A stretch of 64,000 bases of DNA, from assembly GCA_010093815.1 (NCBI GenBank), contig ML996575.1; one strand, 5' to 3'. A program made the translations under genes and the position numbers. Below the pieces are notes generated by a model. It did not search any database and was not told the DNA's origin. It saw only the letters and a list, made by a program, of their open reading frames with translations. This DNA is from Pseudovirgaria hyperparasitica. Taxonomy: Eukaryota. Below are positions 80 through 29,651 of the stretch, in pieces (positions within the stretch are counted from its first letter, which is position 1; every line of letters starts with the position of its first letter).

Positions 80-2653
80 TTATCGGAGAGTAATGGTTTC
101 GATCTGCCGCTCGAGACGTTTGATGCCCAGTTTAAAGCTATGTTTCTCTTTCGTGGAGTCATAGACAGCTTCGCCATCCATCACAGAGGCAATGTAGATA
201 GGTCCCACGACATTGTAAAATCCGTCCCCAAGCGGCCTTAGTATCATGGGCATAGAACAGCCATAGATTATCCAGGCCTCATCTACGATATCATCTGGCA
301 AACAGCAGACTAAAGTCACGTTCTCGGCAATGCCAAGCGCGTGGCTTTGGAGAAGCACGATCCGGCCGGTCAAAATGTCTGATCTGCACATGTAAACATA
401 CATGAGCCGCACTCCGCCATTGAAACTCTCCTTGTCGAAACTACCGTCCTGGTCAGCGGCCAGGAGATACTCCTGCAAGTTATCCATATCCGTACCACGA
501 AGACTGGCCTCTCTGAGGCGGTCACGGAACGCCTGAAACGCAACAGCGAAATCACCTCGATACATTCGGAAATAGGCTTTCTCGTCCTCGAAAGACTTTT
601 CTTTGTATTCGGTCGAGGACCGATACATGAGCGTATACAGCCATTGCGCTGTTCCAAGGATCAGATCGCCTCCAGGAGACAGTGCGTCTAGATGATCAAA
701 TATGTCAAGGATCTTTTGTGCTCTTCCATTCACTGGCGGATAGGCGAACCGGAGTCCGTCGAGTTTGATTGCTCGAACCCGCATACACCATTCGTCATCT
801 TTGAGAAAGCGATCTCGACCCAGAGGACAAGGCCTCGGGCCTGAAGCTTCATGCCGAAATGGTTCGAATTTGGACTTAGTGAGTAGCCCGTCCATCCAAT
901 TCGGAATCCAAGTCGGCAGAAAAGATTGATAAAGAGAGCCATTAGAACCGCGCCACTGGACCTGGTCCGAACAGCGTCGTACATATGGGAGGTACTCGAC
1001 ATAGTTGTGTTTCTTGCAGCGATCTAGAGCGTATCTGAAAGTTCTTGCTATAGTCCAGTCATAGTCCCCATCGGCAAGAAGAGGATCGATGTCGTGCGCC
1101 AGCCCATACAATGCAAAAATACGGTCTCTTGGGTCAGATGTATGAAGTTTGCCCAGTTCGAGAACCAGATTCAGGAGACTTCCTATATATGGAATCGGTC
1201 CACCCTTTGAATCGGCCACGGCAGCTGCTTTCATCCAATCTCGGTAGTCGCGCCTGTACGAGATGAAACTTTTAGAGGGTATCGCAAGACTCACAATGTG
1301 TTTCAACTTCTTCTCCCATCTGCTATTCAAAGCATGTCGCTCAGGATCCTTCGTCGGACTCACATACTCCGTTTTCACCTCTGCAAGTGCATGTTGAAAA
1401 GTGAATAAACCTGTTCCCGTTATGATAGTGCTCTGACAATGCACAACGACATGATTCGCCATTAACAGCTCTTGCTGGGTCCATAACCGAGTCCAATAAT
1501 CGTCGGCCATAATGCCATCCAGAGGATTCCATAGAGATGGATCGTGTCCTAGCAGTACATGAGCATTCTTTGCAAGGGTTGCCATAGTGATCTCTATTTC
1601 TTCCTCCTGTTCTGCAATCGCCTCGAATTGGGCCAGATGCTTGACACATGGCTCCATGGGGTCAAGAAATTGGTCTATCCAGACCCTGACCCATTGAGCT
1701 TGTGTGTATATGCATTTTGTCATACCAACGTACATTTTTCTCTCGTCGCTGTCTCGTTGGTTGATGCACAAGTCGCGGATCCATAGCCGAATTGGTTTCT
1801 CCTCGTCTCTAATGTCACGGAGGGCTTTCAGGGTATTGGGAGCAACCCCTGACCAGTGATGCCCAGCCGATTCGTTGCTACAGCCAAGTAGGACTCTTTC
1901 GCTAGACTTTCCGGCCATATATGACACAGCGTCAAATATCGGTTCTGTGTTCAGGGATACGACGATCAAGTGACCCTCCAGAGGCATATCACGTTTTCCA
2001 GGGGCCAATTCTAGTAGGCGAATATCTTTTGCCCTGACATTGATCGGTGAGTACCGAAGCTGCAGGTTCTCTTTCAAACCATCAAGATTCTGTCGACCAA
2101 GGTCCTCGTATGAGCGCCACATTTCAAAAGGACTCGGCCAGATGTCGATATCTGGGCTTTCATTTTGCCTCAATGTGACCATTCTTCTCCTAAAACCGCC
2201 TATAAAAATTTCCTCCATCAATCGCTGACCCGCGGCATCAGCAGGAGTAAGCATGGGTTCTCTTATAGCACAGGCATGAGCCATGAACTTGTGCACTGCA
2301 GCTTCAAATACTCGAACGCCTGCCTTCTCGCGTGGCGCATCCGACGTCCAGATCAGATTCTCGTATATAGTCGCCGCGTCGTCAATTATCTGTTGGCGCC
2401 CTTGTTGTGAGTCGAAGAATTCCTGGTAGTCAATGTTCCCCTGTCCTGGCCTCTTCGGACTGCAAACACTTTGCCTCGCCCGGTCATGTGCTTCATCCAT
2501 CTCCTCGTGGGAATATACACAACTTATAGGGATATCCGTAATAGCCTCTTCAGATCTAGAATTTGACGAATACAATAATACGATTATGCAGCCGGTACCA
2601 CTATTTTCTAAGATACCCTGCCTGTTAGGACAAGTGAGATGAAAGTTATACAT
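80..2653 (-). CDS. HET-domain protein (HET-6-like), paralog 1; real start may be Met at 2500
   Basis: IRLLEL..G, FDAVSY, LWIRDLCINQ, IY..A..V.VW, YWTRLWTQQE, DPRDRIFALYGL, LPTWIPNW and C-terminal GCSMPMILRP...VGPIYIASVMDGEA typical of HET-6-like proteins. Confidence 0.9.
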   Translation of the reverse strand: MYNFHLTCPNRQGILENSGTGCIIVLLYSSNSRSEEAITDIPISCVYSHEEMDEAHDRARQSVCSPKRPGQGNIDYQEFFDSQQGRQQIIDDAATIYENLIWTSDAPREKAGVRVFEAAVHKFMAHACAIREPMLTPADAAGQRLMEEIFIGGFRRRMVTLRQNESPDIDIWPSPFEMWRSYEDLGRQNLDGLKENLQLRYSPINVRAKDIRLLELAPGKRDMPLEGHLIVVSLNTEPIFDAVSYMAGKSSERVLLGCSNESAGHHWSGVAPNTLKALRDIRDEEKPIRLWIRDLCINQRDSDERKMYVGMTKCIYTQAQWVRVWIDQFLDPMEPCVKHLAQFEAIAEQEEEIEITMATLAKNAHVLLGHDPSLWNPLDGIMADDYWTRLWTQQELLMANHVVVHCQSTIITGTGLFTFQHALAEVKTEYVSPTKDPERHALNSRWEKKLKHIVSLAIPSKSFISYRRDYRDWMKAAAVADSKGGPIPYIGSLLNLVLELGKLHTSDPRDRIFALYGLAHDIDPLLADGDYDWTIARTFRYALDRCKKHNYVEYLPYVRRCSDQVQWRGSNGSLYQSFLPTWIPNWMDGLLTKSKFEPFRHEASGPRPCPLGRDRFLKDDEWCMRVRAIKLDGLRFAYPPVNGRAQKILDIFDHLDALSPGGDLILGTAQWLYTLMYRSSTEYKEKSFEDEKAYFRMYRGDFAVAFQAFRDRLREASLRGTDMDNLQEYLLAADQDGSFDKESFNGGVRLMYVYMCRSDILTGRIVLLQSHALGIAENVTLVCCLPDDIVDEAWIIYGCSMPMILRPLGDGFYNVVGPIYIASVMDGEAVYDSTKEKHSFKLGIKRLERQIETITLR

Positions 2654-2793
2654 ATACGGGTTCTATCCATTTTTCAGCTCTCGACAAGGCCGCACCCGAG
2701 CACCCGAGCCCCACTCGCTATATATGCAACTGACCGTTTTGAGTGGGCCAAGAAACAATGCTAGGATTAGTGACATGCAACCACAGGCGCCTA

Positions 2794-3285
2794 TCCGTCT
2801 GTAACTTTTTCAGCGCAACTCTTGGCACGCGCGGTGTGCGCAACACACCACTTTTTCTCCTATTCTTAAAACTTACCTTTACCCTAATATCTCTAGAAAT
2901 AGAACTCTAGGAAGTTTTTTAATAATATATAAATATACTTCTATATAGTCTCTTACTTTCTATATAAGAAAATTAATAAAAAAAATAGATTAATTAGTTA
3001 TTCTAAGAAAAGCTCTATAAAATAAAGTACTAAGGTATATAGTAGAGAAAATAAGAAAATAGAGATTTTCTCTATTATCTATCTCTTTAAGACTCTTTAG
3101 TCTTTAAAATAACTTAATAAATATTCTTTAGGTATAACTAAAGGTATATATAATCTTTTAATATCTTTTCTAATTTTAATACTAGAGTTATTAAAGGAAA
3201 TATAGGTTTTTAAGAATAAGAGAAAAAGTGGTGTATTACGCGCACGACGTGTGCTAAGAGTTGCGCTGAGAAAGTTACGGACGGA
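2794..3285. mobile_element. Non-autonomous TIR element (MITE, ~490 bp), RIP-mutated
   Basis: ~78-bp imperfect terminal inverted repeats (TCCGTCTGTAACTTTTTCAGCGCAACTCTTGGCAC... / ...GTGCTAAGAGTTGCGCTGAGAAAGTTACGGACGGA), very AT/TpA-rich interior, TA on the left flank and CA on the right. Confidence 0.85.
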
Positions 3286-3480
3286 CACACAGTCCGTACC
3301 TGCCAGTTACCAGATTCTTGACCACGCCGAGGCAAATGGCTAAACTTCCGGAGAATCTATTCCCGGATATTATAAGTTCTATCACACTTGCTTCAGAGTG
3401 TATGAGAGCCCAGTTGTAGTCATAGCCTTACAAATTTCTTCGGTCGGTGGCAAGATCCCGACTCAAGTCACGGCTGCTAA

Positions 3481-6000
3481 TTACCCAAGCATTGAACTAT
3501 CCCATAGGGTTACAGTTTCGATTTCATACTCTCTTCCATTCCAAGTATGTCTCGATGAATTTGGGTCGAGCCCAATAACAGCTTCGCCATCCATGACCCC
3601 TGCCACATAAACCGGTGCAATGACTTCATAGAACCCCGTTCTGTGCGGTCGCAGTATCATTGGCATCGGGCATCCGAATACAATCCAGATCTCATCACCA
3701 TTGCCTGCTGTCTGTTGTGAGCCTTTGACGTAGACCTGGTGTGTTAGACCAAGTAGTTGCCTGTATTCCGTGGTCCCGCTGGTTATAATGAGTGTTCCAT
3801 CATCAAACATGGCGTGATCTGCTAGCGCGGCGAATATGAACTGCGACTCTTTGTCATGATCTGTCAAGTAACCACTTTCCACAGCGTGGTGCACACGCTC
3901 GATCATATCGATGTTATCAGACTTGTCTGGATAGTTGCGAAGAAAGTCGAATAATGCCGTCAGTGCTGCGCATAGTGATCCTTCGTAGTTTTCCAGGCCG
4001 AAATTTGGAGGTGTTGCCAGTGCTAATTCTGTCAGATCATCTGTTCTATGTGCCTTATTGATCGCATATGCCAGGGTTTCTCTCCACTGTCTATAAACTC
4101 CTGTTCGCAGGACGCCGCCTGAGCTCTCGCGAAGGAGAACGTCCAAGATATCGATCCTAAGTGAAGGGTTTGCTGACAGGAAAGAACACGCCAGATCGAC
4201 GTGGGCTAGGCGATATCCTCGAATACTCAAGGTCAATTTCTCAATTGATACCGGGCTGGGTAGAGGTAGGAGCTCTCCTGATGCAGTATACAGTTCTGGA
4301 AGGAAGGACATGTCCAAGTTTACTGTATCCCAGTTTGGAATCCATGATGGTATCATCGCCTTTCTGTAAAACTGTTGGGGAAAAGCATTGTCTAGAGGCT
4401 TATGCCCAGCTTTCCTATCGTCTTGAACTTCATGGTCGCGATGCTCGTTGTCGTGAGGCCTCTTCTTATCGAATTTCTTTCCTAGGACTTCGTTCTCGCA
4501 AAGCTCGATAACATGGTTTTTGACACGTAGGGCAAATCCCAAAAATGCAAGGCTACACCTCTTTTCAACGAAGAAACTGAGTGCACTGGCAAAGACCTGT
4601 GCTGTTGACCATGATGGATCGACATTGATGTCGTTTGGGTTATAGTCTTTCGCAATGCCGAGCAGACCTAACACGCGGTCTTTCGGCTTCGTTACTGCCA
4701 GCGGTCGGCAATTTTGGAGATGATAGAGTAGGGAGCCAGGTTGAATTTTGCGCCACCTATTATCCTCTATAGGATCAGGCATCGCTCGCATGTTCCGTAC
4801 GACGGCGATAGATTTTGCTGGTATCGGCGAATATGCGATGGCGCGAAAAGGGCCATACCATTGCTTGTAGAATGGTTTCGATTCTGTACTGGTCATAAGC
4901 CCCCGTTTGACCACAAAAACAGTCTGTAACACAATGAGGCTCTGTCCACTAATCTCTTTGCTTTTACAATGCAACATCAACGACTTGGCGAACACTATCT
5001 CCTGCTGAACCCACAGGCGTTCCCAATAATCGTGCGACATTATCTTTTCGATCGGTGACCAAAACGTTGGGTCGTCTCCCAAGTCCACTCTCATCTCATA
5101 CTTGAGCATATCCCTGGTCAACTTTGTGAGGTATTTGGGGTGTTTGTCAAGCCTCCATGTTTGCGTCCATACTTTCAGCCTTCTAAAACACGGTGCCGTG
5201 TCGTCGATTTCAATATCGAGCCAAGCTCTCACACGGGTAGCTGAGGTATAGATCTGTTCCATAAGCTGTAACTGGTCTCGCTTCTCGATTTCATCGGCCT
5301 GGTTGATACAGATAGAATCCATCCATATACGGACCGGGAAATCTTCACGTCGTATATCCCGAAGTGCCTTGAAAGAGGTGGGAGAGATTGGTTGCTCCCA
5401 ATGGGTTTGAGGCCCGCCTTTACCGGAACATGGTAGATAAACACTTTCGGAACGTGACCATTGATAGGAAACGGCATCGAATGCGCCGATATCGTTAATA
5501 CAGTGGTTGGTAAGAAAGCCCCGAAGAGGATCTCCAGACTTTCCTGGAAGGACTTCCAGCAGACGCGTCCACATCTGAGCATTCTCAAGAGGTTCATAAT
5601 ATATCTCTAGTTCCTCGTTATAAGGTACTTTAGTCTTAGGGATGACTTCCACCACTGTCTCTGTAATCTCTCTCTCCTCCTCTTCCAAATCCTTCAATAT
5701 CTCGACGTTACTGTCAATATTTCTACGTGCGATTGACTTAGTCTCAGCTAGTCTCGGACCAGGCTCCTTGAGTTGAATGCTCATATGTCTCCTGAGGTGG
5801 TCCTGTTGTGGCAAATGTTTACAATCCCAGTATTCGTCATTAGTAAGCTCTGCGCCTGAGGATGCGTCTTCTTGCTCTTCGTAAAGTCTAGTCAAGGATG
5901 AATCATTACCGAGAGAGGCATGGCGAGGCTCACTTAGTGTCGCCGAGGTCGCGAGCGTGGAATCATTCCATTGTGCTTGTCGGGTAGGGTTGTCTCCCAT
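3481..6000 (-). CDS. HET-domain protein (HET-6-like), paralog 2
   Basis: TRLLEVLPG, FDAVSYQW, IWMDSICINQ, EKRDQLQLMEQIYTSA, YWERLWVQQE, PKDRVLGLLG, IPSWIPNW, GCPMPMILRP...VYVAGVMDGEA. Confidence 0.92.
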   Translation of the reverse strand: MGDNPTRQAQWNDSTLATSATLSEPRHASLGNDSSLTRLYEEQEDASSGAELTNDEYWDCKHLPQQDHLRRHMSIQLKEPGPRLAETKSIARRNIDSNVEILKDLEEEEREITETVVEVIPKTKVPYNEELEIYYEPLENAQMWTRLLEVLPGKSGDPLRGFLTNHCINDIGAFDAVSYQWSRSESVYLPCSGKGGPQTHWEQPISPTSFKALRDIRREDFPVRIWMDSICINQADEIEKRDQLQLMEQIYTSATRVRAWLDIEIDDTAPCFRRLKVWTQTWRLDKHPKYLTKLTRDMLKYEMRVDLGDDPTFWSPIEKIMSHDYWERLWVQQEIVFAKSLMLHCKSKEISGQSLIVLQTVFVVKRGLMTSTESKPFYKQWYGPFRAIAYSPIPAKSIAVVRNMRAMPDPIEDNRWRKIQPGSLLYHLQNCRPLAVTKPKDRVLGLLGIAKDYNPNDINVDPSWSTAQVFASALSFFVEKRCSLAFLGFALRVKNHVIELCENEVLGKKFDKKRPHDNEHRDHEVQDDRKAGHKPLDNAFPQQFYRKAMIPSWIPNWDTVNLDMSFLPELYTASGELLPLPSPVSIEKLTLSIRGYRLAHVDLACSFLSANPSLRIDILDVLLRESSGGVLRTGVYRQWRETLAYAINKAHRTDDLTELALATPPNFGLENYEGSLCAALTALFDFLRNYPDKSDNIDMIERVHHAVESGYLTDHDKESQFIFAALADHAMFDDGTLIITSGTTEYRQLLGLTHQVYVKGSQQTAGNGDEIWIVFGCPMPMILRPHRTGFYEVIAPVYVAGVMDGEAVIGLDPNSSRHTWNGREYEIETVTLWDSSMLG

Positions 6001-6543
6001 ACTTAATAGGTTGCAACAGAAGGGAACAGATACGATAGCTACTCAATGGGGTGATTAACTCTAATGTTTGAAGCAAACTCCGGTTTCGAGACCGCCAGGC
6101 TGAGACGATGCGGTTGCTGCTAGTAAGACACTCGCATGCAGGCAATATGAGATCTGGGATTGGGTGCTGTTACATGCGGCTGCAAGAGCTGTCACATTAA
6201 TCTTTCCTTTCTTGTCATACTGCTGCACAGGTAGGTGTTCAGGGCGTCGTCTAATGCGACAAGCAAGGATTCTGACCATCTGTCATTTGCCTAGAACCTG
6301 ACTCTCTTGGCATTTTTATTTTTGTGCATTTGTTTTACACACCCCTATTAGATAGTTATTCTACCTCTACTTCTATATAAGAGTATATATATTAGAATAT
6401 TTATATAAACTTATAAAGTAGAATAAGACGATAAATCCTATAACTTTTTTAACTTACTAATTTATTTTATAATAAGAGAGTTTAATTACTTAGAACAGAG
6501 AAAGAAGATAGTTTCTAAGAATTAGTAGCGTATTTTTCATATA

Positions 6544-7276
6544 CCCGTCCCACGCACTTAGGAGTTATAACCTCCTAAGTGCTCCCGACTTAAAATATAT
6601 ATATATACTTTAACGGTACTATATAAATAATATATTTAAATATAATAATACTACTATATCTAGAGTCCCTTATACGTACTAAAATAAGAAGGAGAAGATA
6701 TAATCTACTATTCGTGACTTTTAGAACGCGAAATTTAGATTATTAGCGGCCTTAGCGCGTTATTATTACGTTATTATTATATAATATACGCGTCACGTCT
6801 AATATTATAATTATAGGCTTAAAAATAGGCTATAGAAGTGCCTACTATAGGTAAATATAACTAGAATACGAGTAATTAACCCCTAGATAATGTAAGAATA
6901 GGGTTATTGGATAGTAGTGTAGCCAGATGGAACAATGGGGTGTATTCTGTCACAGAACGAATTACTACCGAACCCTTTCGGTAGGAATCCGAGAGTATAT
7001 ATACAAAGGGACGCCGATCTGTCTAGCACGTGACTGTTCACCGCCCTTCACGTCACCTCCTGACCCTGTCAGCTGAGGTACGTGCAGGTCGAGTCCTGCC
7101 TAAGGCTGAGTCCTGACAGATAACTAGAAAGAAGTTAACGAGTAATAAATATATAGTATTAGCTATATAGATGTCGCTATCTTTATTTTATATATATATA
7201 GTACCGTTAAAGTACATATGTATATTTCAAGTCGGAAGTACTTAGGAGGTTACAACTCCTAAGTGCGTGGGACGGG
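6544..7276. mobile_element. Tc1/mariner-type MITE with ~80-bp TIRs and TA target-site duplication
   Basis: TA|CCCGTCCCACGCACTTAGGAGTTATAACCTCCTAAGTG... and ...ACTTAGGAGGTTACAACTCCTAAGTGCGTGGGACGGG|TA; TIR differences are C>T/G>A transitions. Confidence 0.9.
6891..7118. mobile_element. Solo LTR (228 bp) nested in the MITE
   Basis: TGT...ACA ends (TGTAAGAA/TCCTGACA), perfect 5-bp direct repeat GATAA at 6886-6890 and 7119-7123, higher GC than the host element. Confidence 0.85.
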
Positions 7277-7452
7277 TAGGTTATCTTCTTAAAACTTCTA
7301 AGAATTTTTAAAGAGTCTTCTCTATCTCTTTAGAGTAAGTTTATAAGAATAAATAAACTTATAGAAGAATAAGAATATATTTAATTACTTATTTTATTTA
7401 CTTTTAAGACTCTTATATACTTAGATAAGGCGTAAAAGTAGAAAGAGCTCCA

Positions 7453-7487
7453 CCCGTCCCACGCACTTCGGAGTTGTAACCTCCGAA
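7453..7487 (+). repeat. Third, isolated TIR fragment related to the 6544 MITE
   Basis: CCCGTCCCACGCACTTCGGAGTTGTAACCTCCGAA matches the MITE TIR start. Confidence 0.8.
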
Positions 7488-7878
7488 TCAGAAAGATAGG
7501 GGTGAGAACACGTATGCACGAGTGCCTAGGTAGTCAGGTTCTAGGAAAACGACAGATATTTAGGCATAGCCGTCAGTCTCTCCACACACAAAGCGGGGCC
7601 ACAAAGCCGAGAATTTGCCCGTCTGATGCAAGAAAAGAATGTCATCAGTGGCCTAGGCTTGTCATGAATGCTTTCCTCATGCTTAATATGTTTGCTAATT
7701 ATTTGATAATGAAGTAGAGATAAGGCCAAGCCACCCCCGCTGCATGTTACCTGTCAAAATCGCAGATACAATATTTGTTTGTCTTGGTATGACTTGTTCC
7801 CCCTACTATGAGAGTGAGACTCCTCGTACGTATAGTCACGAAGTTCTCCATCTGCTATTACTCATGATGGTACTTCGG

Positions 7879-10357
7879 CTATTTTGCAAAGTGGAGATCG
7901 TAATTCAGCCATTTCCGTGCAACCACGCCAGCCACGTCAAGGCCAGGCTTTCCGTACGTGAGGGGAGCATAGAAGATGAAGACTGCAAATACAAGGGCAA
8001 GAATCGCGCTCGTCGCTATCCATGCTCCAAGAAGGTTTTGACCACCGAGTCTTTCTCTGACAGGCTTGCGGATGGATGCTGTTTTTCTCTTACCTGGGAT
8101 TACGATTGAAACCTCATTCGAGCTGAGTGGCTCAATATTGAAGATAAACTCAACCAGAGCGCCAGTCACTAGAGTGGAAGCCAGATGGGCGGGCAGATAA
8201 TGGTGCAAGAAGAGCTGTCGTCCCATGAGGAAGAACGGAAAATAATGAGCTGCCCAAGTCAGGAAGAAGAAGCCGGTGCTATTGTAAATACGTGATCTGG
8301 TTCCTGACATGCTTGTTAGCTTCAAAAGGCTTTCGATGGCATGACAGATGTCACTCACTGTCATCTAAAGCATCCATTCCTCTCCTGAGTGCGAGTTGAT
8401 CTGCTCCAAGGATACCTAGAAATACTGCAAGAAGGGCGCTGCTAAGCCACCAGCTGATTGGGTTTCCCAGGAAATATATCTGAGAGCGAGTTGAATTCTC
8501 AGTCCAGAAAGAGACCCCACGAAGGAGAAATGGCCATGCGATTGGAAATGATGCGTAGGGATGACTGCTCGTGAGAGCATTGTTGTGGTAGAACATAGCT
8601 CGTTGAAGCTCAAGGTATTTCTTGAGAAATGGCATCCGTTTGGGCTTGCGCGGTTCCCGGATTAAACGATCGCTGTCCAAGGAAAGCGAAGGGATTTCCT
8701 CGACGTACCACGTGTTGCTAGACTGCTGGACGTTTTTGTTGCCATTAATTTCTGCTTGCTTATAGGCCCAGTCAGGAAGAGGGCTAGTGTGTGTCCACAT
8801 GGCTACTCTGGATGTAAAGTGGACGAGTTTAAAGTGTGAAGACATTGTCTTGAACTCCTGACCAGGTTTCGCCCCATCGATCCGAATCTCAAATAAAGTT
8901 TCGTTGTGTCGTGTACCAGCGGCATCTTCAATACTCACAGTTGTAAATTCTTGATTCGTTGGGTAGTACGGAGACGCGACGTCATGGGTCAATAGAATGG
9001 TATCTGTAACCAAATGACGAAGCTTAACAATGTCGCCATGCTTCACCTTCTGTCCAGTTGAGCCAGTGAGAGGGGACCCGGGAAGGATTTGCCAGTGGTT
9101 GTTAGTATCATTGTGAGGGTAACCTGTCACCTGTTGACCTTGACTAGAGATACGTCCGTCATCGTATCGTAGCGGGTATACGTCTGGATGGCTGTGGAGA
9201 TATGTCTTAGTCTCTTTGTGCCTCAAAGTTAAGTGATCATAATATTCGATGTTGACAGAGCTCATGGTCATAAGATTGTCGCTGAGTGTCTCCTGAAATT
9301 CGGGCGTCATAAAATCGTCACCTGGACCAGAGCGGGTCAAAATAGTGAAGTGAACCTGGAACCAGAAGAGATAGAGAATAAAGGGGATTGCAATGAGTCC
9401 AATTGCACGAGCAACGAAGTGCTTGGCAAATTCTTGCAGTGATAAAGCGCCTTGTCGACGATTAATGTCCAGCAAGCTCCACAAATCAATAGCAACCGGC
9501 ACGCCAATGGAGAAGAATGTAAAGACGCCCACGTATTTAGTGGAAATGACACAACTTAGTGCCACGCCTGTGAGGAGGAGCCATTTCCACCATTTCCGGC
9601 CGAAGGCCTCATGTCTTTGCTTGTAGAACTTGACATAACATAATACACTGAGTGCCATGGAAAATATCAGTGTCGCATCCAGGAGTATAAGACGAGTTTG
9701 TCCAATGTGTGCATTGTCGAACAGCATCAATCCAGCTGCTGTAACACAGGCAGGTAAGGAATAACCAGATTCCCACATGATGAGGAACACTGTTGGTACA
9801 GTGAGAGCGCCAAGAGAAGCGGGCATCGCACGGTATGCAACGTAGGGTACATTGTTCGTGATGTATGAATCACCAATGTTGTCAAACAGGAAGTCTCCAT
9901 CGTAGCCAACCAGCCAGCCAGCAAAAGCAAAGAGAAGCTTCCCAAAGGGAGGATGAACGTCGAAGAAGTACATTCGGCGCAGGTAATAAGACGCAAACTA
10001 TGTTGACCCAAAGCGTTAGCTCTTGTGTTCGAAAATGGCTATGTCGTTGCATAGCTGCTGTGCCTGTCCGTCCATCGCCGACGATTTATGGCCTACCTTG
10101 CCGAAGTGAACTTCATCGAACACTACCTGGTCTGGGTGACCGATGGACCAGAATCGTGTCACGAATGCAAGTACTGTAATGATAGTAATGGCTAGCCTAT
10201 AGTCCCATTCTGCTCCCTGCGACGGATGAAGCTCTTGCTTGGCCTTCGCAGCTATCTCTACAGCTGCCTCAGATGCTCCATCAGGCACTGGAGTGGTGAC
10301 ACGCTTCTCTTTCTTGCGTTGCCGTACGCTACCAGCGGATTGTGAGGGGGACGACAT
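7879..10357 (-). CDS. PMT4: Dolichyl-phosphate-mannose protein O-mannosyltransferase, Pmt4/PmtC type (3 exons)
   Basis: VVFDEVHFGK|FASYYL, FFDVHPPFGKL, STKYVG, MIR repeats (YLHSH, LLTHDVASP), SSHPYAS; introns ~10096-9998 and ~8358-8304. Confidence 0.93.
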
Positions 10358-10839
10358 CGGATCTGGCAGTGCTTGCCTGCTCAAATGGCTATGCGCGCGT
10401 TTGCGTGTACGTGTTGTTTAGGGCGTAGGTGAGATTGGACCAGTTGGGGAACATTCGAAGGAAAGGACTAAAGAAGACTTGAGCATAGACCCAACTTGCT
10501 AAATAACAGCTTGCGGGAGACTCATACAAACAAAGGCGGATGATTCTGGCGGGAAAAAGAATGTGGTAAAATTGCAAACGAGATAGCTGTACCTGTGTTC
10601 GAATGGTGGAAGCAACGGACCCCTGTGTGCTTGCTGGTTGGTGCGTCTTGCCCCACAGCGGATTCAATGATCCATGATGGATGGATTGTGGCTGACAACC
10701 TAGGGCTTCCGTATTAACCAGTATAAACCTCATCTCATATTGTCGGAATAGTTAAGCAGCTTCTAACCCCTTCAGTGAACATAAATGTGAAACGTAGAGT
10801 CGCAGCGAGTATTGTTAATATAATTCGAGGCATAGTTTT

Positions 10840-11969
10840 TTATATCTTGGAAGCTTGCTTAAGGATGTCCTTCGTGAGCTCATCTCCAGACTTCCTTTCC
10901 TCAGCGAATCTACCTAATTTGATCAATCGGCCTATCATTTCCTCATCGCCGAAGCGCGAATTATGTTCAAATTGCGGTTCCTGTGCGTATGCGACCCGAG
11001 CACAATCCACCAGTATGCGTGCAGTCATTCCGAACACTCTGAAACGTGCAGGAGGATCTGACGAGAGATACGTCTTCTCGTTCTTGGGAAGAGTGACCGA
11101 TTTTGGGTTCACTGGCACAAAGAAGCTATGCATGCGCCAGCGACTCTCATGCCAGTCCGTCCAAGTTCCTCGATACCAATCTGCTGGGAAACCTGCGGCT
11201 TCAGCTCCAGGCCTGGAATCTACATCATCACCTTGAGTTTGAGCCGAGGAGTTACTGTGATTACTACTCGCATGCAAGAAGTGCTGGAACGGAGCAGTAA
11301 AAACTGCAGCGACTTCTTTTGCATCTAATCGTGGTATCAGCGTCTCCTCGATACGTTTCGACGCGTCAACCGTTTGGCTCCGTGGTGCGTCCGCCTCTGC
11401 TCTTGTGGGCGACAGATATGCTACACACGGTCTGACGCCCAACTCGGTCTTTGCAAGGTTTGCTGGAAGCTGGCACAAGTGTTCTACACGAAACGGATAT
11501 GGCAGTTTGCTGTCCGTGAGCGGTAACCCGATTTCTTCGTATGCTTCGCGTCTAGCGGTTTGAAACGGCGTCTCTGACAAGGAATCGGCTTTTCCTGTGC
11601 AGTCTTCTGTCAGCGTTATCTCAACCAGTCTAAGGTTACAATGCACCTCCCGGTAGCGCCGCATGTCCGGCATCTACATTCTATCAGTCAGATTCATTTC
11701 CATAGCATATATCCGTACACGAAGAGAGCGTCTTGGATCTCATCGTTAGGACCACTTTGAGATCGCCATGGGGATCTGCAAATAACAGGATGAGTACAGC
11801 AGCCCTTCGTGAGAGAGGCGTGTTATAGTATTGTGTCGGTGGCGGAACGTAAGCTCGCAGGCGCGCGAGTGCTTGCTTATGCCGCTGTCAGAGACAAGTC
11901 CGGTGCAACTTGAAGCCCGACGGTAGTGGCATGAATACATACCGTAGATGCAGGTGAGAGACTTGCCAT
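10840..11969 (-). CDS. PCD1: Nudix hydrolase, peroxisomal CoA diphosphatase (PCD1/NUDT7-like), spliced
   Basis: RRAAVLILLFAD, HAALPGG|KAD....TPFQTARREAYEEIGL Nudix box, EVAAVF, VFGMTARILVD. Confidence 0.85.
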
Positions 11970-12428
11970 AGCGAGAGACACGGTTGCTGCAAGCCATAAC
12001 TGAGAACTGAATACTCGTGGACGGCGGAGGTAACGAGAGGTGACGTAGCGGTTAATTAGTGTATCCATTCAATGGATGCCTCGGCCTTCCAAGACCATTC
12101 GGGATGGATGCTTTACGCCATAAATAATCGGTTCACGCATTCGCACAGTTCGTTATCCGGACATCTACTCTGAAATTTCTCATTCTTGTTTAAGAAATTA
12201 TGAAGACCTTTGTCTCTGCACCGACGCGAAACTCATGCCTAGATAGTTCAATGAATGTCTTGTAATGGTAATTATATATGGAACATGCAGGTGCAGATCC
12301 ATATTCACCACCCCTGTCCGATAATGCCCGTTAGCCACTGGAGAACCTTAGGACGCCTGCAAAAGAAATCTTTTATTTGCCAGCGTTTAAAGGTTGTGAT
12401 ACTACCAAGAATTACAAAAGTCCACAAG

Positions 12429-13743
12429 TCAATCCTTGCTGAATTTTCTTTTGAACCAACTTTTCCTCTTGTCGCCTGACGACTCTCTTCTAGACAGCGT
12501 CCGTGGCCTCGATTCGTTGTTACGCACGGCCTCTCCAGTCGTACTAGGACTAATTCCGAGCGGAATATGGCTTTTCCCAGAAGAATTTTTTGGTGGAACT
12601 GTAGGTGCAAGAGCATTTGGATAGTTAGGCGGAGAGTAGGTACCTGTTGGTGCCATGTGTAAACACGAGTAATTGGCATCAGGGCCATATTCTTCCATGA
12701 TAGGAGCACTACCAAACCCAGTAAATGCATATTGATCAGCAGCATCTGCCCTGTTAACGGGTATGTTCCTTTCAATCGAACTATTCTCACTGCTTGGATC
12801 AGTGGTATTTGTCCACGGCTCACTGCCACTCCCAGAAACACCTGTGTTGACGGTATCGCGAGATTGTTGGTAGCCTGCATTGGGATACACCGGAGCACCG
12901 TTGTTATAACGACCGGCTTGTGGATCCGACATCATTCGCTGGTTATATCGGTTTCGTGAGGGACCAGCTACGGGAGGTGCATAAGTTTGATCATTGTAGT
13001 TTTCTCGAGCACCACCATTGCCATTACCGTAACAGCCTCCTATGTTCGAGTGACGGGTCTGCGTTCGCTCATTATTGCCTGTTCGGTTACTTAGCGTACG
13101 GGATCTGAATTTAAGACTGAGCAAGTACCGGCAAAATAACTGCTCCTGCGGCTTTGGTATGTACTGGCCGCATCAGGCGCTGTATCTGGAGGAACAATCA
13201 GACTGAATCGTGAGCTATGTGGGTGGATCTGTTTGTATACCGGCTCTCAGCAAAGTCCGTCTCTTGTATTCGGTATCGATTGCCGCTTCGAAGGACTTTA
13301 TTGTATCGAGGGGACGTTCCCAACGTGGTCTTGTTGGATTCGAAAGGTCCGGTTCAGCTACAACGAACAGAGCAAAGGTCTTAGAAAGATTGCGCATGAT
13401 TTACATTATGCGATACTTACCGATCGGATTACCAAATGTATCAAGGTGGGAGAACGATCGCAGAGGCGCTAAAGTCGATTTCTCTAGAGCTGCAGCTACT
13501 GCAAGTGCTGTCAGTACATAGGTCATACTTGGCTTTGGGTGACATACTAGGTTGCGCTTCATTCATTGCCGCATTGGGGTCTGCTTTGCCGGTCGGAGTG
13601 AAATGGCTTTTTCGTTTCTCCTCAGCAGTCTCTTTGATGGTCTTAGTGCTGGTCGAGCCCTGCGACTTGTGGCTCTTTTCACTCTTGAAGCTGAAGGTAG
13701 ACTTGGATCGGGGATGTTGCGGGGGGCGATCCATGCTGGACAT
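12429..13743 (-). CDS. Conserved fungal DUF2406-type protein, multi-exon
   Basis: KADPNAAMNEAQP and EPDLSNPTRPRWERPLDTIKSFEAAID motifs; C-terminal KRKSWFKRKF; canonical splice sites link the ORF pieces. Confidence 0.75.
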
Positions 13744-15135
13744 ATTGGCAGAAAGTTATAATTATAAATAATGAAGTAAGCGGTGATTCCGTGTGTGGGA
13801 TCGGAAGTATGTAAGGTATATGCGCTCGAAAAGTGAGCGTGTGAGATCCGAAGCGTTCGATCAGAGGTTGGTAACGATGGACCTGGAAGGTTGGTATACA
13901 GCAGGCCAGGTTGCGCCAGAAGATTCGTAGTGTAGTAGCGAGCGTAATGATGAGCCTAAACAAAAGGCAGGGTAACTTTTTCAAAAATATGGCAAATATA
14001 TGCGCATTCAGTTGCAGTTGGCAGGGTGAAAGAAAGACCGTGGTATCTATGGTGAGAAATATGTGTTAGGCGACGCCTGCAAGTAAATGGTCCTCAGGCC
14101 AGGTTGGTGGGAGGTGGAGACCTATGATTGCGCATACACACTACAAATGGATGCGCGCCATCTGTGCCGAATAATAGGTATCTACCTGGCAGATCTATTC
14201 ACTCGCAACCATTACATATTGTTATCGCCACTCCTTTACATTTAACACAGGACCGGATGCTAGCTACTGATGGGCTACTGAGCGACAAGAAAAAAATGCA
14301 ACAGCCATTAGCGGTTTCATGATGGGAGACAACACCCATGAGCTTCCGAGCGTTGCAACATCTTACATGGTGATAGCCCAGTCCCAGTGATGACGACGAC
14401 GGTTCACAGCGCATCATCAATACACATCTATCGATAATAGCTGCATGCAAAAGTGGAGCCCTCATTGCACAGCCCGACAGCCCCAGGCCAGTCCCGCCCA
14501 ATTTTCCTTTATGTACATAGTAAATACCCGGCTGCCCGTCCTGCACTCGATAATGCATGAAACCATGCCTCTTGTGCTCTAGCTAATTCTCTGCCACTGC
14601 CCTCGCATTGCCAGCAAATGGACGAGTGTACTGTACCTTAAGTCCCTCCACCCATGAGCATGCGCATTGCCAAGAAAATGTTTCAAGACAGGTCAGACTG
14701 GTAATACTGCTGCTCCGTACCCAGAACCTCGATACTCCTCCTATCATCCGATGCTTGATCGAGACGTCTTGTACTTACTATTCTCCACATCAAAAGCCTT
14801 TGCCACGAGAGGCCTTCGTCACAATGTCTAAATTCTCAACCATTAGCGATCCAATACGATTGTTACTTTGTTGCTTACCCATTCTACTGCCACACGTTGG
14901 TACAATATCGTGTGAACATAGCCAGCGTGCTTAGCATGCCCGTCGTAATTGTTGCCACCTGTGTGCACGGATCACTTTGGGTGGGGGCGGCACCGCCCGG
15001 CCAGTCCACTAGCACGAAATCATCTCGACTTCAGCTCACCGTCTAGTATTTAGTGCTTTCTGTACGATCTCCTTCACGCCCTCACCTTTCCTGTACGATA
15101 CTACGAACAATTGAATTTTTATCACATTCACTGAT

Positions 15136-16634
15136 ATGGGTTTCTTCAAGAAGAAGAACAAAGGTGAAGGCAAGAACAGCCCAGTGCCTGAAACCAATCC
15201 TTACGCCCAGGACAACTCTTCGAAACCAGACGCGTACCAAAGTGCTTCTACCAATGGTTATGGAAATTTAGGCTCTGCTCCTCCTCCGCCATATACTCAC
15301 AACAATTCTGTCAATGATGGTGGTTTTAGAACTCGAGACAATCAAGACTATGACTCTTCACAGGCTCGGGATGAAAAATCACCTGTGCCTCAAGGTGGCT
15401 ACGGAGGCACTCAGTATGGTGGTAATTCTGCTTATGGCGGTGGTAGATATGGCGGAGGACATTCTTACGGAGACTATCCCGGTAGGAAATGACTATCATG
15501 GAAACAAAGCAGAATGACTGACCCCCTAGCCGGTACCAATTCGTATGATACGACATCCAGACTTGCTCGTCGTGCAGGTTATGGTGGTTTAGGTGGAGCG
15601 GATATTCGAGATGACCCCAATAGAGAAGCCTTATTCGGGAAAGCACCGCAACGAGACCATTCCGCCAATCCCTATGCCTCATCAAGTAACATGCTCGCAG
15701 GACCGACGGGTCATGCTGCGAGCGGTGTTGGGCGGAGCGAGCTATTTGGGAATGCAGCAGATCGTGTCCAGCGAAGACAAGATGACCTCGGAACTGGCCA
15801 TCGAGAATACGAAGACAACTATGATGGTCTTACTGAAGAGCAAAAAGAGGCTCGAGATGTGAAGAGAATTCGTCAAGAAGCAAACGCATGGCGTGGTGAA
15901 TCTGCACAATCTGTAAAAAGGGCAGTAGCAACGACAGATTCGATTAAAGAAATGGCTGCAGCGACTCGAAAGAAAATTTATGACCAGGGCGAGAGCTTGA
16001 ATAAGTCCGAGAAAATAATGCATGCTGCAAAATACCAGGTGGAGCAAGCAGGGAACGGTATACACAGACTAGGCAAATTGCAGAGTGTGTTTTCAATAGA
16101 CCCTGCTACAAAAGATATATCTGCGAAGCAGGTGTTACACATGGAAGGACATGCAAGTGCGTCTCATACTTCTCGCAACACTATGCTAATTAATCCTTGT
16201 AGGAAAAACACCAAGCTGAGAAACGCGCCATGAACGAGCACCAACATCAGCAAACCCAATTGAAGAACTCTCAGCCTCCCAAACAAGATACCGTATCCCA
16301 TGCTCCCAAAAGAACACCCGATCCGAAGTATTTCGTCCCCGATGAAGACGATTCAGATGCAGAGAGACAGATGGCTTTTGAAGAAGGTAAGCGCCTATAA
16401 TTTTACACAAATGCAGCTGGAGATGATCTAAATACAAGGCTGACCTTTGTTCTAGACATTGACAATGGTCTCGAGCACATGCGGCGGGGTGTTGCAGACA
16501 TCAAGTTTTTAGGGACCGACATGGGTAGAGAGATTGCGCGACAGAACGAGCATATCGGCAAGATCGACGAAGGTGCACACAAACTCAATTCAAACATTGA
16601 GTTGCAGCGCCATAAATTGGACAGTTTCCGATAA
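15136..16634 (+). CDS. SEC9: Sec9/SNAP-25-like Qbc t-SNARE (4 exons), divergent SNARE helices
   Basis: NPYA and REALFG/RSELFG N-terminal motifs; Qb helix with IYDQGE; after splicing a Qc helix DIDNGLEHM...MGREIARQNEHIGKIDE ending in TAA at 16632-16634; introns begin ~15482, ~16132, ~16387. Confidence 0.82.
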
Positions 16635-17109
16635 TAAGCACATGCTACACGTAGGATTCTTTAGCGATGACGAAGTTGATGCTGCATGTCACTGTCCAAG
16701 AGGAGGATATCTGAACACTGTAGTGAAGGGTCATACATAGGCTGTATGCTTCTACCGTCCAGCAGAGACTTCAGAGTAGTTCACATAGCTCGCCGACGTT
16801 CTTTAGGTCCATACTCAGTCAATAACAACACACACTTAAGATTACACTTCCCATCGAAGGCTCGTTCCTGTGGCCTTGTCTTTGTAGTTGGATTATTCGG
16901 TGATCTGTTTCACCACCTCTGAAAGGAAATGTTTACGAATCTGGCCACGTCGACTTAAGCTATAAGTCGGTCCTTTTCTACAGGGTACTAAGTACTATTT
17001 ATTCACTGTTCACGGGCTGTCGCCATTATGTCTTTCCCTATAAGTTAGTAGCTCGTCACTGTGCGGTCTTTCGTAACTTATATTTCCTATCATACTTATA
17101 CTATAGACC

Positions 17110-18520
17110 TACTGCAAGAGGTCAGCTTCCCGATAATAATTAGCTTAATATTCCCATTATATGTACACTATATCTTCATTAGTAGGCTTAGATAAAAGAA
17201 CTAATAGCTCTAGAATTATATTCTATATCAGCCAGCCTAAGCATCTTAAGTCCATCTCTATATCTTATCTACAATCCTATTATTTTCTGATCCATGTTTG
17301 ATGTGTGGAAGTCATACTGACTTACCGCTTTATATACCAATACTACTTATAAGATGTTATAAACAATATTTGAATGCGTTCGCCGCTCGCATCTGTTCAT
17401 AAGAGCTTCGAAGCGTGGCGATGTTTTGACTGCAATGTAGGCTGTATCACTTTTGAGGAAAAGTTTCAGAAAATTGGCTGTAGTGTTAGTTATGAACAGT
17501 AGTTTTCTAGACTATGTCTCATGGACCGGCTGGGTCTGTAGAACCTACATTTCTCTCTTGTTGCTCGTGGATCTGTCTGTGTATGTCGCATTAAGAGTCA
17601 GGTCCATGGCATCCAACGCGGCCTAATCGATCCACAAGCATTAGTAGACTCAGTACTCTTATCACTTCACGTCAACCGTTGCTTCGATGATACAGACAGG
17701 GCTTTGGACACTTTCCATGCAGTGCGATTGGCATAATTTGAGTTATTTGACAGTAACGATTGACACGAATCGCGCTTTGCTTGCTAGGGTCGGTCCAAAC
17801 ATGACTCGGATACAGAATCTTTCGAAACAAAAGTTCATAAGCCCTTGATGCACTATCAATGATCAGAACGTCAATTTTACCTCGTTAAGTGAAACTTTAC
17901 GCTTTAACACTCTGAAAGATGTTGCACGTGGCGTACCACGGGAGATCCTACTAGCTGCAGCTGTCTCGCCTTCTTTGAGGTCTTCTCTGTCGGCCCCCAT
18001 GGCCATGGCGTGCACCGAGCCAGACCTCCAGGAATGGTATAGTCTCGTACGGATGATATCGACGAATAGACAATAGAAAAGGCGTTAGAGGGTCGTGAGA
18101 TTAGGCGTATAGATGCAACGTCGAAGCGAGGTTGAAATCTTGGTGTCCCTTAACCATACCCTTAATTGGGATAGCGTGGCTGGAAACTAATGCAGTCTCT
18201 GCCGAGGAAATATGCCTGCAAGTGTCAATGAGATGGAATGTATACGAGGCTGTCATATACACTGCTGTTAATGGTGGGGGTTTACGTCCGAAAGATAGGT
18301 CTAGATTGACGACATCGTAGCTTGTAGAGACATCCGATCTTTCACAAGCGGCACAGGTATTAACAAGGCGGGACTTTTTTCCACACTGTCATTCAAGGAA
18401 GCTTGGAGTGGCTCTAGTATCTCGTTTCAGCGATTTCAGACAGCCTCGTCAGATACTGATTCGTCATGAACCCTGGGCTGAAGTTGTTTCGGTTCGTCGG
18501 TTGTGGTCCTGTACTAAATT
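17110..18520 (-). pseudogene. Decayed SF1 (Upf1/DNA2/NAM7-like) helicase relic
   Basis: Ordered motif remnants on the minus strand: LVQG(P) with frameshift ~18517, LQASLNDSVE 18408-18379, YATC, KIDVLIIDSASRAYE 17878-17834, IQILFITSYK* 17375-17343, IVDKI*RWT*D 17275-17243, KLIIIGK 17146-17126; many stops and frameshifts. Confidence 0.6.
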
Positions 18521-18845
18521 GCTAGGTCGGGAGCTTGCTTTCCGCAAACCATCATAAACGTCCAGTAGTCGAAATCGGGGCATTGATATCTGTTGTGGCT
18601 TTCCTGCAGCTACTGCATCCGTCTCCGGGCTTAATACTATAAATCACGGTAGGAATTACTCCCAACTTGTAAAGTCCCAGTGCACTCCTGGTCCATCATT
18701 TAAAACCCCATCTCGTTCCGAGTTTCCTTATCATCAATATTGTCTTTCAGCTATTCCAAGGCGATCTTCGTATCCCGTTTGACCGAGTAACATGGTTTCG
18801 TCTCTCACAAAGACTAGGAACAGGCTTTCTGGTATCTTCAGTAAG

Positions 18846-24504: not shown

Positions 24505-25623
24505 TTAGATGTCATTGTAACCCAGGTAGGTTTTGGGCAAGTTCTTATCTACCACCGCCCACGCCCATGCCCTTCCTGCCTCCCCACACCAAAGCGCCGA
24601 GGGATCCTCAGACTTCTGCAATACTCCGTCCTTCTCTAGCGCTTTGATCTCATGGCCGGTCGTGTATGTCAAAAAGTGTTCGCAGTCTTTATCCTCAAGT
24701 GCAAGCGCGTTGCCACTAATGCCATGACACAGACAGGGCTCCTTGGTCAGTAGACCTCGTTCTTTGATGCACTCCCGGCCTTTCCTTATTGCGCTCTCGA
24801 TCTTGTCCTTCAGATTTGGGAAGTATCCTTTGATTTGGTCTAGACTGGCGACCACGCCTGGTGCGCCGTGGCAGAACTGTACGAGGCGGTCTTTGCCAGG
24901 AGGTATTGAGGACGGCCAGTTCCCACTGTCGAATTGGTAGCTCAATAGTGCTGCTAGATCAGCTTCAATCTTAGGAGCCCATGTTGGGTCTGTGAGGACA
25001 ATTTGAGTGATTATGCCAACGGCACCGTGTACTGCACCAACGTAGGCTTTGCCGTGCCATTTCCATGGCCTGGGAGTGTCCATGATTGTGTCGATAACGG
25101 CGTCGGCTGAGTCATCAATGAGATCTAGCATTTCTTCGTTGTCGCTGAAAGATCTCCGCACCAGTCTTAGGAAGTAGAGGTAGCCTGCGCCGCCATAAAG
25201 CCACTCGATGGACGCTCCAGGCTCCGCAGCAATATCTTTGTAGTTGCATAGTTCTTTTACCGTGTCTTCATCTTTTGCTGTGGCGGCGTATAGCGCAAGA
25301 AGCGCCATGATGTCGTCGCTGACACCGCATTTCTCTGGTGATGGACCTGGATAGTCTTTGATGTTTGCTTGTGCTTGTTCCAGATAGGCCGCAGACCAGG
25401 TTGTTAGTGGAAAATCTTCGATCTCTAAGTCTGGATAGAGTCCATTGAGTGTCGCAAACAGATGAGCCACCGATGTTGGACCGTAATAGAATCCACCACC
25501 CGCTGGTATTTTGTCTGGAGGATACTCTGTCACTAATCGCGTGAGTGAGGCAACGAGTTGCTTCTTTGGATCTCGGCGAGCAAGCGGGGCATCATTCCTG
25601 AAAAATCGTGACTTGTGTGACAT
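24505..25623 (-). CDS. LanC-like protein (LanCL/GCR2 family)
   Basis: WLYGGAGYL, WKWHGKAYVGAVHG, GNWPSS, QFCHGAPG, CLCHGISGN: catalytic His and Cys/Cys/His zinc ligands present. Confidence 0.9.
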   Translation of the reverse strand: MSHKSRFFRNDAPLARRDPKKQLVASLTRLVTEYPPDKIPAGGGFYYGPTSVAHLFATLNGLYPDLEIEDFPLTTWSAAYLEQAQANIKDYPGPSPEKCGVSDDIMALLALYAATAKDEDTVKELCNYKDIAAEPGASIEWLYGGAGYLYFLRLVRRSFSDNEEMLDLIDDSADAVIDTIMDTPRPWKWHGKAYVGAVHGAVGIITQIVLTDPTWAPKIEADLAALLSYQFDSGNWPSSIPPGKDRLVQFCHGAPGVVASLDQIKGYFPNLKDKIESAIRKGRECIKERGLLTKEPCLCHGISGNALALEDKDCEHFLTYTTGHEIKALEKDGVLQKSEDPSALWCGEAGRAWAWAVVDKNLPKTYLGYNDI

Positions 25624-26088
25624 TGCTGCAGCTGCTTAGCGTGCTAACCTGACTTGTGATAAATTGCAGATAGTTCTATGATTCGACGTTGTTATGCCTG
25701 CCTCTGGTCTGTTGTGCTAGTTCCTTTGAGAGTGGTTTTGATGTTGAAGTTCAGTAGGCTGAGACTGTGGGGCGGCGCGAAGTGACGTAGCTTGGTCAGA
25801 CAGCTGACAGGCGGGATGTTTGCAAGTAAGGAGGTGAAAGGCTGAACTTTCATTCCAATGTTCAGTCGGTGGTCATTATTGACCCAGGCTTACTCAGATG
25901 CTGTTCTTATCTCGTATGTACTACGACATCCGCAGTAGCAACATGTATGAGAGCTCGAACAAGGCTTGGTAGGGGGTTTGATTCAAGGTTTCTAGCGGGC
26001 CTCAGGTGTCTTCTTTGGTGAATCACATAAAGAAGATGCAAGCCTAGTGCAGTCCTTGAAAGGGGAAGCATATATACGCATGTCATGT

Positions 26089-27697: not shown

Positions 27698-29651
27698 ATG
27701 AATGGCGGCGAGTCCTATGGCGGTGGCCGAGGTAAGTATCTTACAATCATGGCTGTGCAGCTACTGATTGCAATATGTTATAGAACGACACGGCTCAGGT
27801 CGCGATTATGTATGGTATACTCTCTCATATGCTTCGAAACTGGGCTAATCTGACAGAAACCGCGCGGAGACCGTGACGACCGCCGCGACCGACGTCGCCG
27901 ATCTAGATCTCCCAGACACGGAGGGTCAGGTGGAGGATCGCGCAGAGACTACGAGGTAGATACGTACTCTTCAAGTCGCGACTACAGGGAGCGTGAACGC
28001 GAGGACAGGTACGCAGGTCGTAGCGACAACAGGCGCGAGGAAAGAGGCGGTTGGGGTGGTGGCCGTGACAATCGAGGAAGCAGACGCGATGATGGCGATC
28101 GTCCTCCACGTCGCGATCGTGGTGATTTGTTCGATGATAGAGGCGGAAGAGGCAGAAGAGAACGTGGTGGCGGTCACGAACGAGCCGAGCAACGACCTCG
28201 TAGTGCCAGCCCGCCCCCGAAGAGAAAGGAGCCTACACCAGATCTGACTGACATCGTACCGATCCTTGAGCGCAAGAGAAGATTGACTCAATGGGACATT
28301 AAGCCTCAGGGTTATGAGAATGTCACCGCGGAGCAAGCGAAGCTATCTGGAATGTTCCCTCTGCCAGGCGCACCGCGTCAACAACCTATGGACCCAAGTC
28401 GTTTGCAAGCCTTCATAAACCAACCGTCCGGCTCCGCCACGTCATCTTCGCTGAGACCATCCAACGCGCGACAAGCAAAGCGATTGTTCGTGTACAACAT
28501 CCCTGCATCAGCGACTGATGAATCGATTGCAGAGTTCTTCAATCTCCAACTCAATGGCCTGAACGTCATACAAGGAACCGATCCTTGTGTCAATGTAGCC
28601 ATTGAACCTAGCCGACAATTCGCATTATTGGAATTTCGCAACACCGAAGATGCTACGATGGCACTAGCACTTGACGGCATCTCGATGGAACCAGACGCTA
28701 TGGATACTAGCAATGGCGCGTCCAATGGCAAGCCTTCAGGCCTGAGAATCTCTCGTCCGAAAGATTACATTGCGCCAGCACCGGACGCGGATGAGGAACC
28801 GCCCCAGGAAGGTGTCATATCCAATGTTGTCAAGGACAGCGCCAACAAGATTCTTATCACGAACATTCCTGTCTACCTTAGTGACGATCAAGTCACCGAG
28901 CTTCTCGCTGCCTTTGGTGTCCTCAAAGCATTCACTCTTGTCAAAGATACAGGCACAGAGCAGTCGCGAGTGAGTTGTTACCCTCGCTCCGTTCAACGTA
29001 CCAGGTACAACACTAATCTTTGCTTTCTAGGGTATCGCCTTTTGCGATTATGTCGACCCACAAGCCACCGATGTCGCCGTCGAGGGCCTCAACGGCATGG
29101 AGCTTGGCGATGCACAACTCAAGGTACAGCGAGCTAGCATTGGTATCACGCAAGCATCTGGTCTTGAGATGGGTGTCAACGCCATGTCAATGCTCGCCGG
29201 GACTACCTCCTCTGAGCTTGAGCAAGGTCGTGTCTTGCAATTATTGAACATGGTGACGGCTGAAGAGCTCATGGATAACGATGAATACAAGGGTGAGTCA
29301 TGTGGTCTTCTAAGTAACTCATCTAGCATACCAGTACTGACACATTGCAACAGAAATCGTTGAAGATGTCAAGGATGAATGCAGCAAGTACGGTCCCGTG
29401 CTGGACATCAAAGTCCCTCGCCCAAGTGGTGCTCGTCAAAACCCCGGTGTTGGTAAAATCTTCGTCAAGTTTGACAAGCCAGAAAGCGCACAGAAAGCTC
29501 TTGCGGCGCTCGCAGGCAGGAAATTTGCAGACAGAACTGTTGTGGTGACGTTCTTCGGAGAGGTATTCACCATCTACCAATCTTTTTTCCCCTCTCCACA
29601 AGATATGCTAACTTTGTCCCACAGGAGTACTTCGACATCAACGCCTGGTAG
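27698..29651 (+). CDS. U2AF2: U2 snRNP auxiliary factor large subunit (U2AF65), multi-exon
   Basis: RS domain (RRRSRSPR), KRRLTQWDIKPQGYE ULM, RRM1 and RRM2, C-terminal UHM (GVGKIFVKF...LAGRKFADRTVV...EYFDINAW*). Confidence 0.95.

Follow-up and report, generated by a model that had tools for sequence, protein, structure and literature searches.

A highly diverged, sole Sec9 SNARE near a HET-6-type gene pair in the mycoparasite Pseudovirgaria hyperparasitica

The firm result of this analysis is an orphan, hyperdivergent Sec9, the only Sec9 detected in the genome of Pseudovirgaria hyperparasitica, a dothideomycete described as a mycoparasite on rust sori (PMC3317363; papers are cited here for the passages covered, which include parts of PMC6455062 and PMC7159315). 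Its gene, sec9, lies in a 64-kb stretch of DNA (the window; G000:C11:1055180-1119179, in a genome of 35.4 Mb and 122 contigs) which also contains two HET-domain genes, denoted HET1 and HET2. From left to right the order is HET1, a terminal inverted repeat (TIR) element, HET2, nested repeats, Pmt4, a NUDIX hydrolase gene, a DUF2406 gene, sec9, 2 kb of intergenic DNA, a hydroxyacid dehydrogenase gene and a FAD monooxygenase gene (Table 1). We put at about even odds (roughly 0.5) the reading that an arms race shaped this Sec9, that its guard has been lost or is unlinked, and that the HET pair is coincidental. A sequence-only reading had proposed a new allorecognition locus, which we regard as a minority hypothesis.

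The sec9 gene is intact and spliced, and all three introns (15482-15529, 16153-16202 with GC-AG borders, and 16387-16455) have RNA support. Four sequencing runs from two samples are listed, of which three were compared; X2 is a DNA run, and X3 and X4 are treated as RNA because they skip introns. X3 and X4 come from one sample and carry no population information; no other letters are found in the listed gene pieces in the three runs compared. The database model of the protein (P0001) places the donor of intron 2 at a GT lying 21 nt further upstream and is shorter by 7 residues, whereas the RNA backs the GC donor; the Sec9 comparisons below used P0001. The protein has the two SNARE helices, zero-layer glutamines, hydrophobic or small layer residues and missing transmembrane anchor of a Qbc SNARE. 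It aligns with Sec9 proteins across both helices and matches SNAP-25 in the PDB. Sec9 is an essential protein, and an essential function is presumed for the window Sec9.

The sequence itself is far from those of its homologues. Among 1.84 billion representatives the best match scores 60.7 bits, and identity over the Qb and Qc helices is 22-31% to all 19 aligned homologues (19 of the 28 other matches; nine shorter ones were omitted), compared with 73% between Lophium and Ptychographa. The terminal branch has a length of 2.33, as against 0.08-0.44 in three canonical rows, and the placement of the window Sec9 in the tree is without support (85/59, long branch). Yeast Sec9 is absent from its 35 PDB matches at E ≤ 10, whereas the Sec9 of the dothideomycete Lophium scores 151 bits to it. 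Identity to Lophium Sec9 is concentrated in the core layers (14/32 positions, versus 13/74 at the surface) and both zero-layer glutamines are kept. Other strongly diverged Sec9s are P0003, P0006, P0007 and P0014 (Delitschia, Cytospora and Diaporthe are among their sources).

The partners of the window Sec9 and its neighbour appear ordinary when compared by sequence: against the yeast proteins Snc1 scores 96.8 bits (61 aa) and one Sso 45.6 bits (84 aa), and Pmt4 reaches 928 bits with its best match in the PDB. The divergence of Sec9 is therefore not a genome-wide rate effect, and the description of sec9 as a diverged gene about 9 kb from the HET genes is borne out, with a distance of 9.1 kb from the HET2 start and a divergence specific to the gene. 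The genome has two Sso-like syntaxin paralogues, at C6:991219 (L045) and C14:394128 (L046), and the yeast comparison refers to the C14 copy only.

Genome searches here score the best candidates only. With Lophium Sec9 as query, the window locus is the only match (E 0.09, five candidates scored); a second canonical query gives as its best a weak match on another contig (E 0.15) and the window locus at E 0.38. The window sec9 is thus the sole Sec9 detected among the scored candidates. A U2AF-like RRM gene that adjoins sec9 in one of three metagenome sec9 loci (L044; at least three such loci come from 591 candidate stretches) has a counterpart in the window at 28205-29568 (55-67% match), about 11 kb downstream of sec9. 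This shared neighbour is consistent with an ancestral neighbourhood of sec9 and, with the single copy, argues for an orthologue.

Fungal Sec9 is described as a recurrent target of surveillance by NOD-like receptors (NLRs) and a proposed effector target; according to reviews, NLR/SNARE systems have arisen independently in four fungi (PMC10197012, PMC12881547), and Neurospora has four sec-9/plp-1 haplogroups. A guard of this kind is not seen here. As the sequence-only reading had stated, the 64-kb window has no patatin, NB-ARC or NACHT match, and contig C11 as a whole holds none of the nine NB-ARC and 14 NACHT matches of the genome; these counts are lower bounds, and a divergent NLR could escape such searches. 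Inspection of the open reading frames of at least 170 aa, taken from the remainder of the window and from the 60 kb lying upstream, reveals no recognisable NLR, and a search of five intergenic gaps for a dead NLR or patatin gives nothing above about 27 bits. Patatin domains have 11 matches among 15 candidates in the genome. None of these 11 loci has an NB-ARC frame (the nearest NB-ARC match is about 31 kb off, on C5), so no PLP-1-type receptor was found in the genome-wide check that had been suggested. Hence neither a tightly linked NLR nor a Patatin-NB-ARC-TPR receptor, both features of the NLR/SEC-9 loci, is found among the candidates scored. Unlinked NB-ARC-TPR NLRs are present on C3, C13 and C19, two of them with an adjacent upstream HET match. 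A short contig carries two HET-NACHT matches of equal score, one at either end and in inverted orientation (C47:1340-2680 and C47:23479-24819).

Both HET genes are intact and transcribed. The two open frames (860 and 853 aa) match PF06985 with 61.3 and 73.4 bits; an unspliced X3 contig covers HET1 at 24-2639 and another covers HET2 at 3232-6232, with no other letters in X3 or X4, so that the two genes stand as they had been described. They are reciprocal paralogues with 29% identity over 737 columns. HET1 is the best genomic paralogue of HET2 (179 and 74 bits; the others, in a search with 34 matches of 40 candidates, reach at most 63), and the closest database protein to HET2 scores below HET1 (82 bits, 24% identity; seven other matches among 7997 scored). 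Since HET1 outscores every other genomic or database match to HET2, the pair probably arose long ago, when a HET-6-type gene was duplicated in tandem at this site. 'HET-6-like' is a fair label for the architecture, because residues 400-838 of HET2 resemble protein clusters of which 32-68% of members carry the PF26639 Het-6_barrel (Atlas score 0.98); the barrel assignment comes from HET2 only. The AlphaFold model of HET2 is poor (pLDDT 52, pTM 0.46) and with this low-confidence model Foldseek returns no match at E ≤ 0.001. The consensus motif of the alignment, WxDALCINQ, reads WIRDLCINQ in HET1 and WMDSICINQ in HET2; one of the two paralogues may be altered in function.

The stand-alone HET family of Pezizomycotina is numerous, fast-evolving and non-syntenic (PMC4540973), and the present genome has 77 HET matches of 85 candidates, or about 72 loci once split exons are merged. 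HET1 and HET2 are distinguished from the rest of that family only by their tandem origin and their nearness to sec9; one other HET pair less than 4 kb apart lies on C1. Because these roughly 72 loci leave 3.9% of the genome at a distance of 10.1 kb or less from a HET domain, the linkage of sec9 to the pair is weakly unusual. The chance of a HET domain this close is 18% over five and 33% over ten candidate guardees. Proximity raises the odds of a functional link from a low prior, without establishing it. No HET or NLR frame is present at the three metagenome sec9 loci (eight flanking frames scanned, the others inspected), which encode canonical Sec9s, one on a contig of only 3.6 kb.

In the reading we favour, the sole Sec9, shaped by conflict, and the HET pair, placed by chance, are independent of each other. 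The Sec9 t-SNARE would still be expressed and probably still part of the Sso/Snc/Sec9 exocytic bundle, its sequence having been driven apart by conflict. An arms-race history would be the most likely cause, because fungal Sec9 is repeatedly surveyed by NLRs and is a proposed effector target. The guard would not be linked now, being either lost or among the unlinked TPR-type NLRs elsewhere; the pair 9 kb away, an old tandem duplication at one of the many HET loci, is probably a chance neighbour. As at the NLR/SNARE loci of Neurospora (plp-1/sec-9), Podospora (het-Z), Cryphonectria (vic2/vic2a) and Botrytis (Bcvic1/Bcvic2), an exocytic SNARE is strongly diverged with its SNARE layers kept; unlike at those loci, there is no linked NLR, and no patatin-NLR was found in the genome. 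In the Botrytis pair, Bcvic2 is a syntaxin, and Bcvic1 does not belong to the patatin NLRs (10.1101/2022.04.03.486892).

Several points weigh against this reading. A long branch by itself is no demonstration of selection or polymorphism, and core-over-surface conservation is expected from purifying selection alone; the canonical pair Lophium and Ptychographa has the same bias (28/32 core, 50/74 surface). Divergent Sec9s are common in the library of 50% clusters, where P0014 has a longer branch still (2.81). Sso was judged by comparison with yeast only. The suggestion that a guard has been lost fits the data in that no linked plp-type guard is present, but the five gaps hold no remnant of a former NLR. 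Finally, the 3.9% coincidence cannot be neglected, and it speaks for a HET guard.

Alternatively, Sec9 may have sped up for non-immunological reasons, because constraint was relaxed or exocytosis changed in this lineage, in an ordinary region with a coincidental HET pair. We hold this explanation to be possible, with distinctly limited confidence: neutrality would itself lead one to expect change concentrated at the surface, and divergence is seen in many unrelated Sec9s. However, Snc1 is near its yeast counterpart and Sso can be recognised as canonical, which means that constraint is not relaxed over the whole bundle, and sec9 is single-copy in both searches.

A joint haplotype of sec9 and the HET pair like het-6/un-24, in which the C-terminal region of a non-NLR HET protein would sense non-self Sec9 and the HET domain would trigger death, is doubtful. 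The most diverged SNARE examined does lie less than 10 kb from the only cell-death genes in about 124 kb examined (3.9% for one named gene), and those genes are expressed, intact and without a close database relative. There are also precedents: het-6/un-24 lies inside a five-gene inversion (PMC2851567), and non-NLR HET proteins are the sensors that determine specificity at het-B (PMC10890737). As in Neurospora, a HET protein with a Het-6_barrel-type architecture stands by a presumably essential gene with others between, although the partner here would be Sec9 and not ribonucleotide reductase, and the likeness to HET-6 is one of architecture. As at Podospora het-B (Bh/Bp), a non-NLR HET protein could be the sensor, but Bh carries a lectin fold at its C-terminus and has a PII-like partner next to it (PMC10890737), where HET2 is Het-6_barrel-like and no PII-like neighbour is seen. 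Three conserved genes, the ordinary Pmt4, NUDIX and DUF2406 genes that had been noted from the start, and nested repeats separate the pair from sec9. The abundance of HET loci and the other close pair on C1 make coincidence cheap, most HET-gene allele swaps in Aspergillus oryzae caused no incompatibility (cited in PMC11138114), the SNARE guards in the passages covered are all NLRs, and none of the three other (canonical) sec9 loci has a HET or NLR frame. No title or abstract opening in the literature searched describes a HET-guarded Sec9, most subscription papers lying outside that coverage. Of the proposed single allorecognition locus the proximity stands, with no positive evidence beyond it, and recruitment of a HET-6-type pair beside sec9 as a guard seems unlikely.

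It is very improbable that the window sec9 is a derived paralogue or decoy with the canonical gene hidden in sequence missing from the assembly: the assembly is in 122 contigs with gaps (N runs) and the searches score best candidates only, but two canonical queries give no strong match, the U2AF-like neighbour is shared with a canonical sec9 locus and the gene is intact and spliced.

The 'dead helicase' said to abut sec9 was not confirmed. None of the six frames of the stretch matches Pfam. Searched by tblastn with 20 AAA_12 loci of the same genome, it reaches 26.3 bits at best (23.9-26.9 in 20 shuffles), and one of its minus frames finds no helicase in the PDB or the protein database (proteins of 812-2315 aa only). 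A single-frame hidden Markov model of helicase superfamily 1B (SF1B) gives -0.3 bits, and 7 of 200 shuffles score higher; a frameshift-aware SF1B profile gives 20.1 bits, equal to the mean of 150 shuffles (20.1 ± 2.6), whereas helicase copies elsewhere in the genome that are broken by repeat-induced point mutation (RIP) score 52-68 bits. A chain of motifs scores 19.8 versus 17.0 ± 4.4 in shuffles. Made RIP-aware, the chain scores 42.2 versus 36.1 ± 4.2 (1.4 standard deviations above; at least 4 of 60 shuffles are higher), above all 12 real control stretches (maximum 36.0), with positives at 52-59 and 81. One motif-II-like string of 14 residues (13 bits) remains, and 16950-17450 is mildly AT- and TpA-rich. 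The profile was built for SF1B only, other helicase families being covered through Pfam alone. With motifs II-VI at or near background, an SF1B (UPF1/DNA2-like) pseudogene by sec9 is unconfirmed, and nothing would tie even a real relic to recognition. Elsewhere in the genome, ten dispersed matches to AAA_12 (UPF1-like helicase), each with 9-11 TAG or TAA stops, apparently belong to a RIP-inactivated repeat family with an SF1B helicase domain (L034-L039 and L041; C5:1816884, C1:2736314, C22:170193, C20:646681, C4:1136155, C9:1539971, C8:925352, C6:98056, C32:87883 and C9:361258).

The repeats around the HET genes had been described as RIP-mutated transposons. They are indeed RIP-like (TpA/ApT of 1.58 and 1.49 in the two TIR-element regions, versus 0.56-0.68 in genes) and multi-copy by depth in the DNA run X2, with a very high depth for the solo long terminal repeat (LTR); but the elements are small (0.5 and 1.3 kb, less than 2 kb in total) and do not make up a transposon field. 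Among the neighbouring genes, a single spliced contig of X3/X4 spans NUDIX and DUF2406 (10836-13760), by read-through or overlapping untranslated regions. A LanC-like gene (97.9 bits) lies at 24505-25635.

Table 1. Features of the left part of the window (window coordinates).
Feature	Position	Strand	Remarks
HET1	80..2662	-	intronless gene with HET domain at 1469-1936; 860-aa open frame; first Met 2653, next 2500
TIR element	2794..3285	.	non-autonomous, multi-copy, RIP-like; 78-nt arms, 87% complementary
HET2	3481..6000	-	intronless HET gene; 839 aa (open frame 853 aa); HET domain 4999-5481
Nested repeats	6278..7557	.	RIP-like; outer element with 35-nt TIRs; inner element (6542-7278) with 101-nt TIRs; solo LTR
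Solo LTR	6891-7118		inside TIR element; TG..CA ends; target-site duplication GATAA; empty-site joint 6884-7118
Pmt4-type protein O-mannosyltransferase	7879..10417	-	conserved; PDB match
NUDIX hydrolase	10840..11673	-	main open frame, more 5' exons upstream; 19.4 bits, below the 21.1 cut-off; introns from RNA-like contigs
DUF2406 gene	12429..13740	-	head-to-head with sec9; open frame, RNA-like contigs
sec9 (Qb+Qc SNARE)	15136..16634	+	443 aa; exons 15136-15481, 15530-16152, 16203-16386, 16456-16634
Intergenic stretch	16700..18600	.	single-copy; earlier read as 'helicase relic'; no coding relic demonstrated

Were the HET pair a guard after all, it would be the first case of stand-alone HET proteins carrying out SNARE surveillance, and also the first allorecognition locus based on a SNARE in a dothideomycete mycoparasite. 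It would further supply a defined ligand for stand-alone proteins of the HET-6 type, for most of which no trigger is known. If it is not, the window is a caution that proximity to HET genes is cheap in genomes with about 70 of them. Fungal cell-death surveillance has recruited Sec9 repeatedly, and in the passages covered the NLR was always linked to it. Here the only Sec9 detected has diverged too far to be recognised by yeast Sec9, its partners are ordinary and no NLR is linked to it. Such a gene offers a test of what drives the diversification of this SNARE, and makes it possible to set outside effectors or unlinked receptors against a linked guard as the driver.

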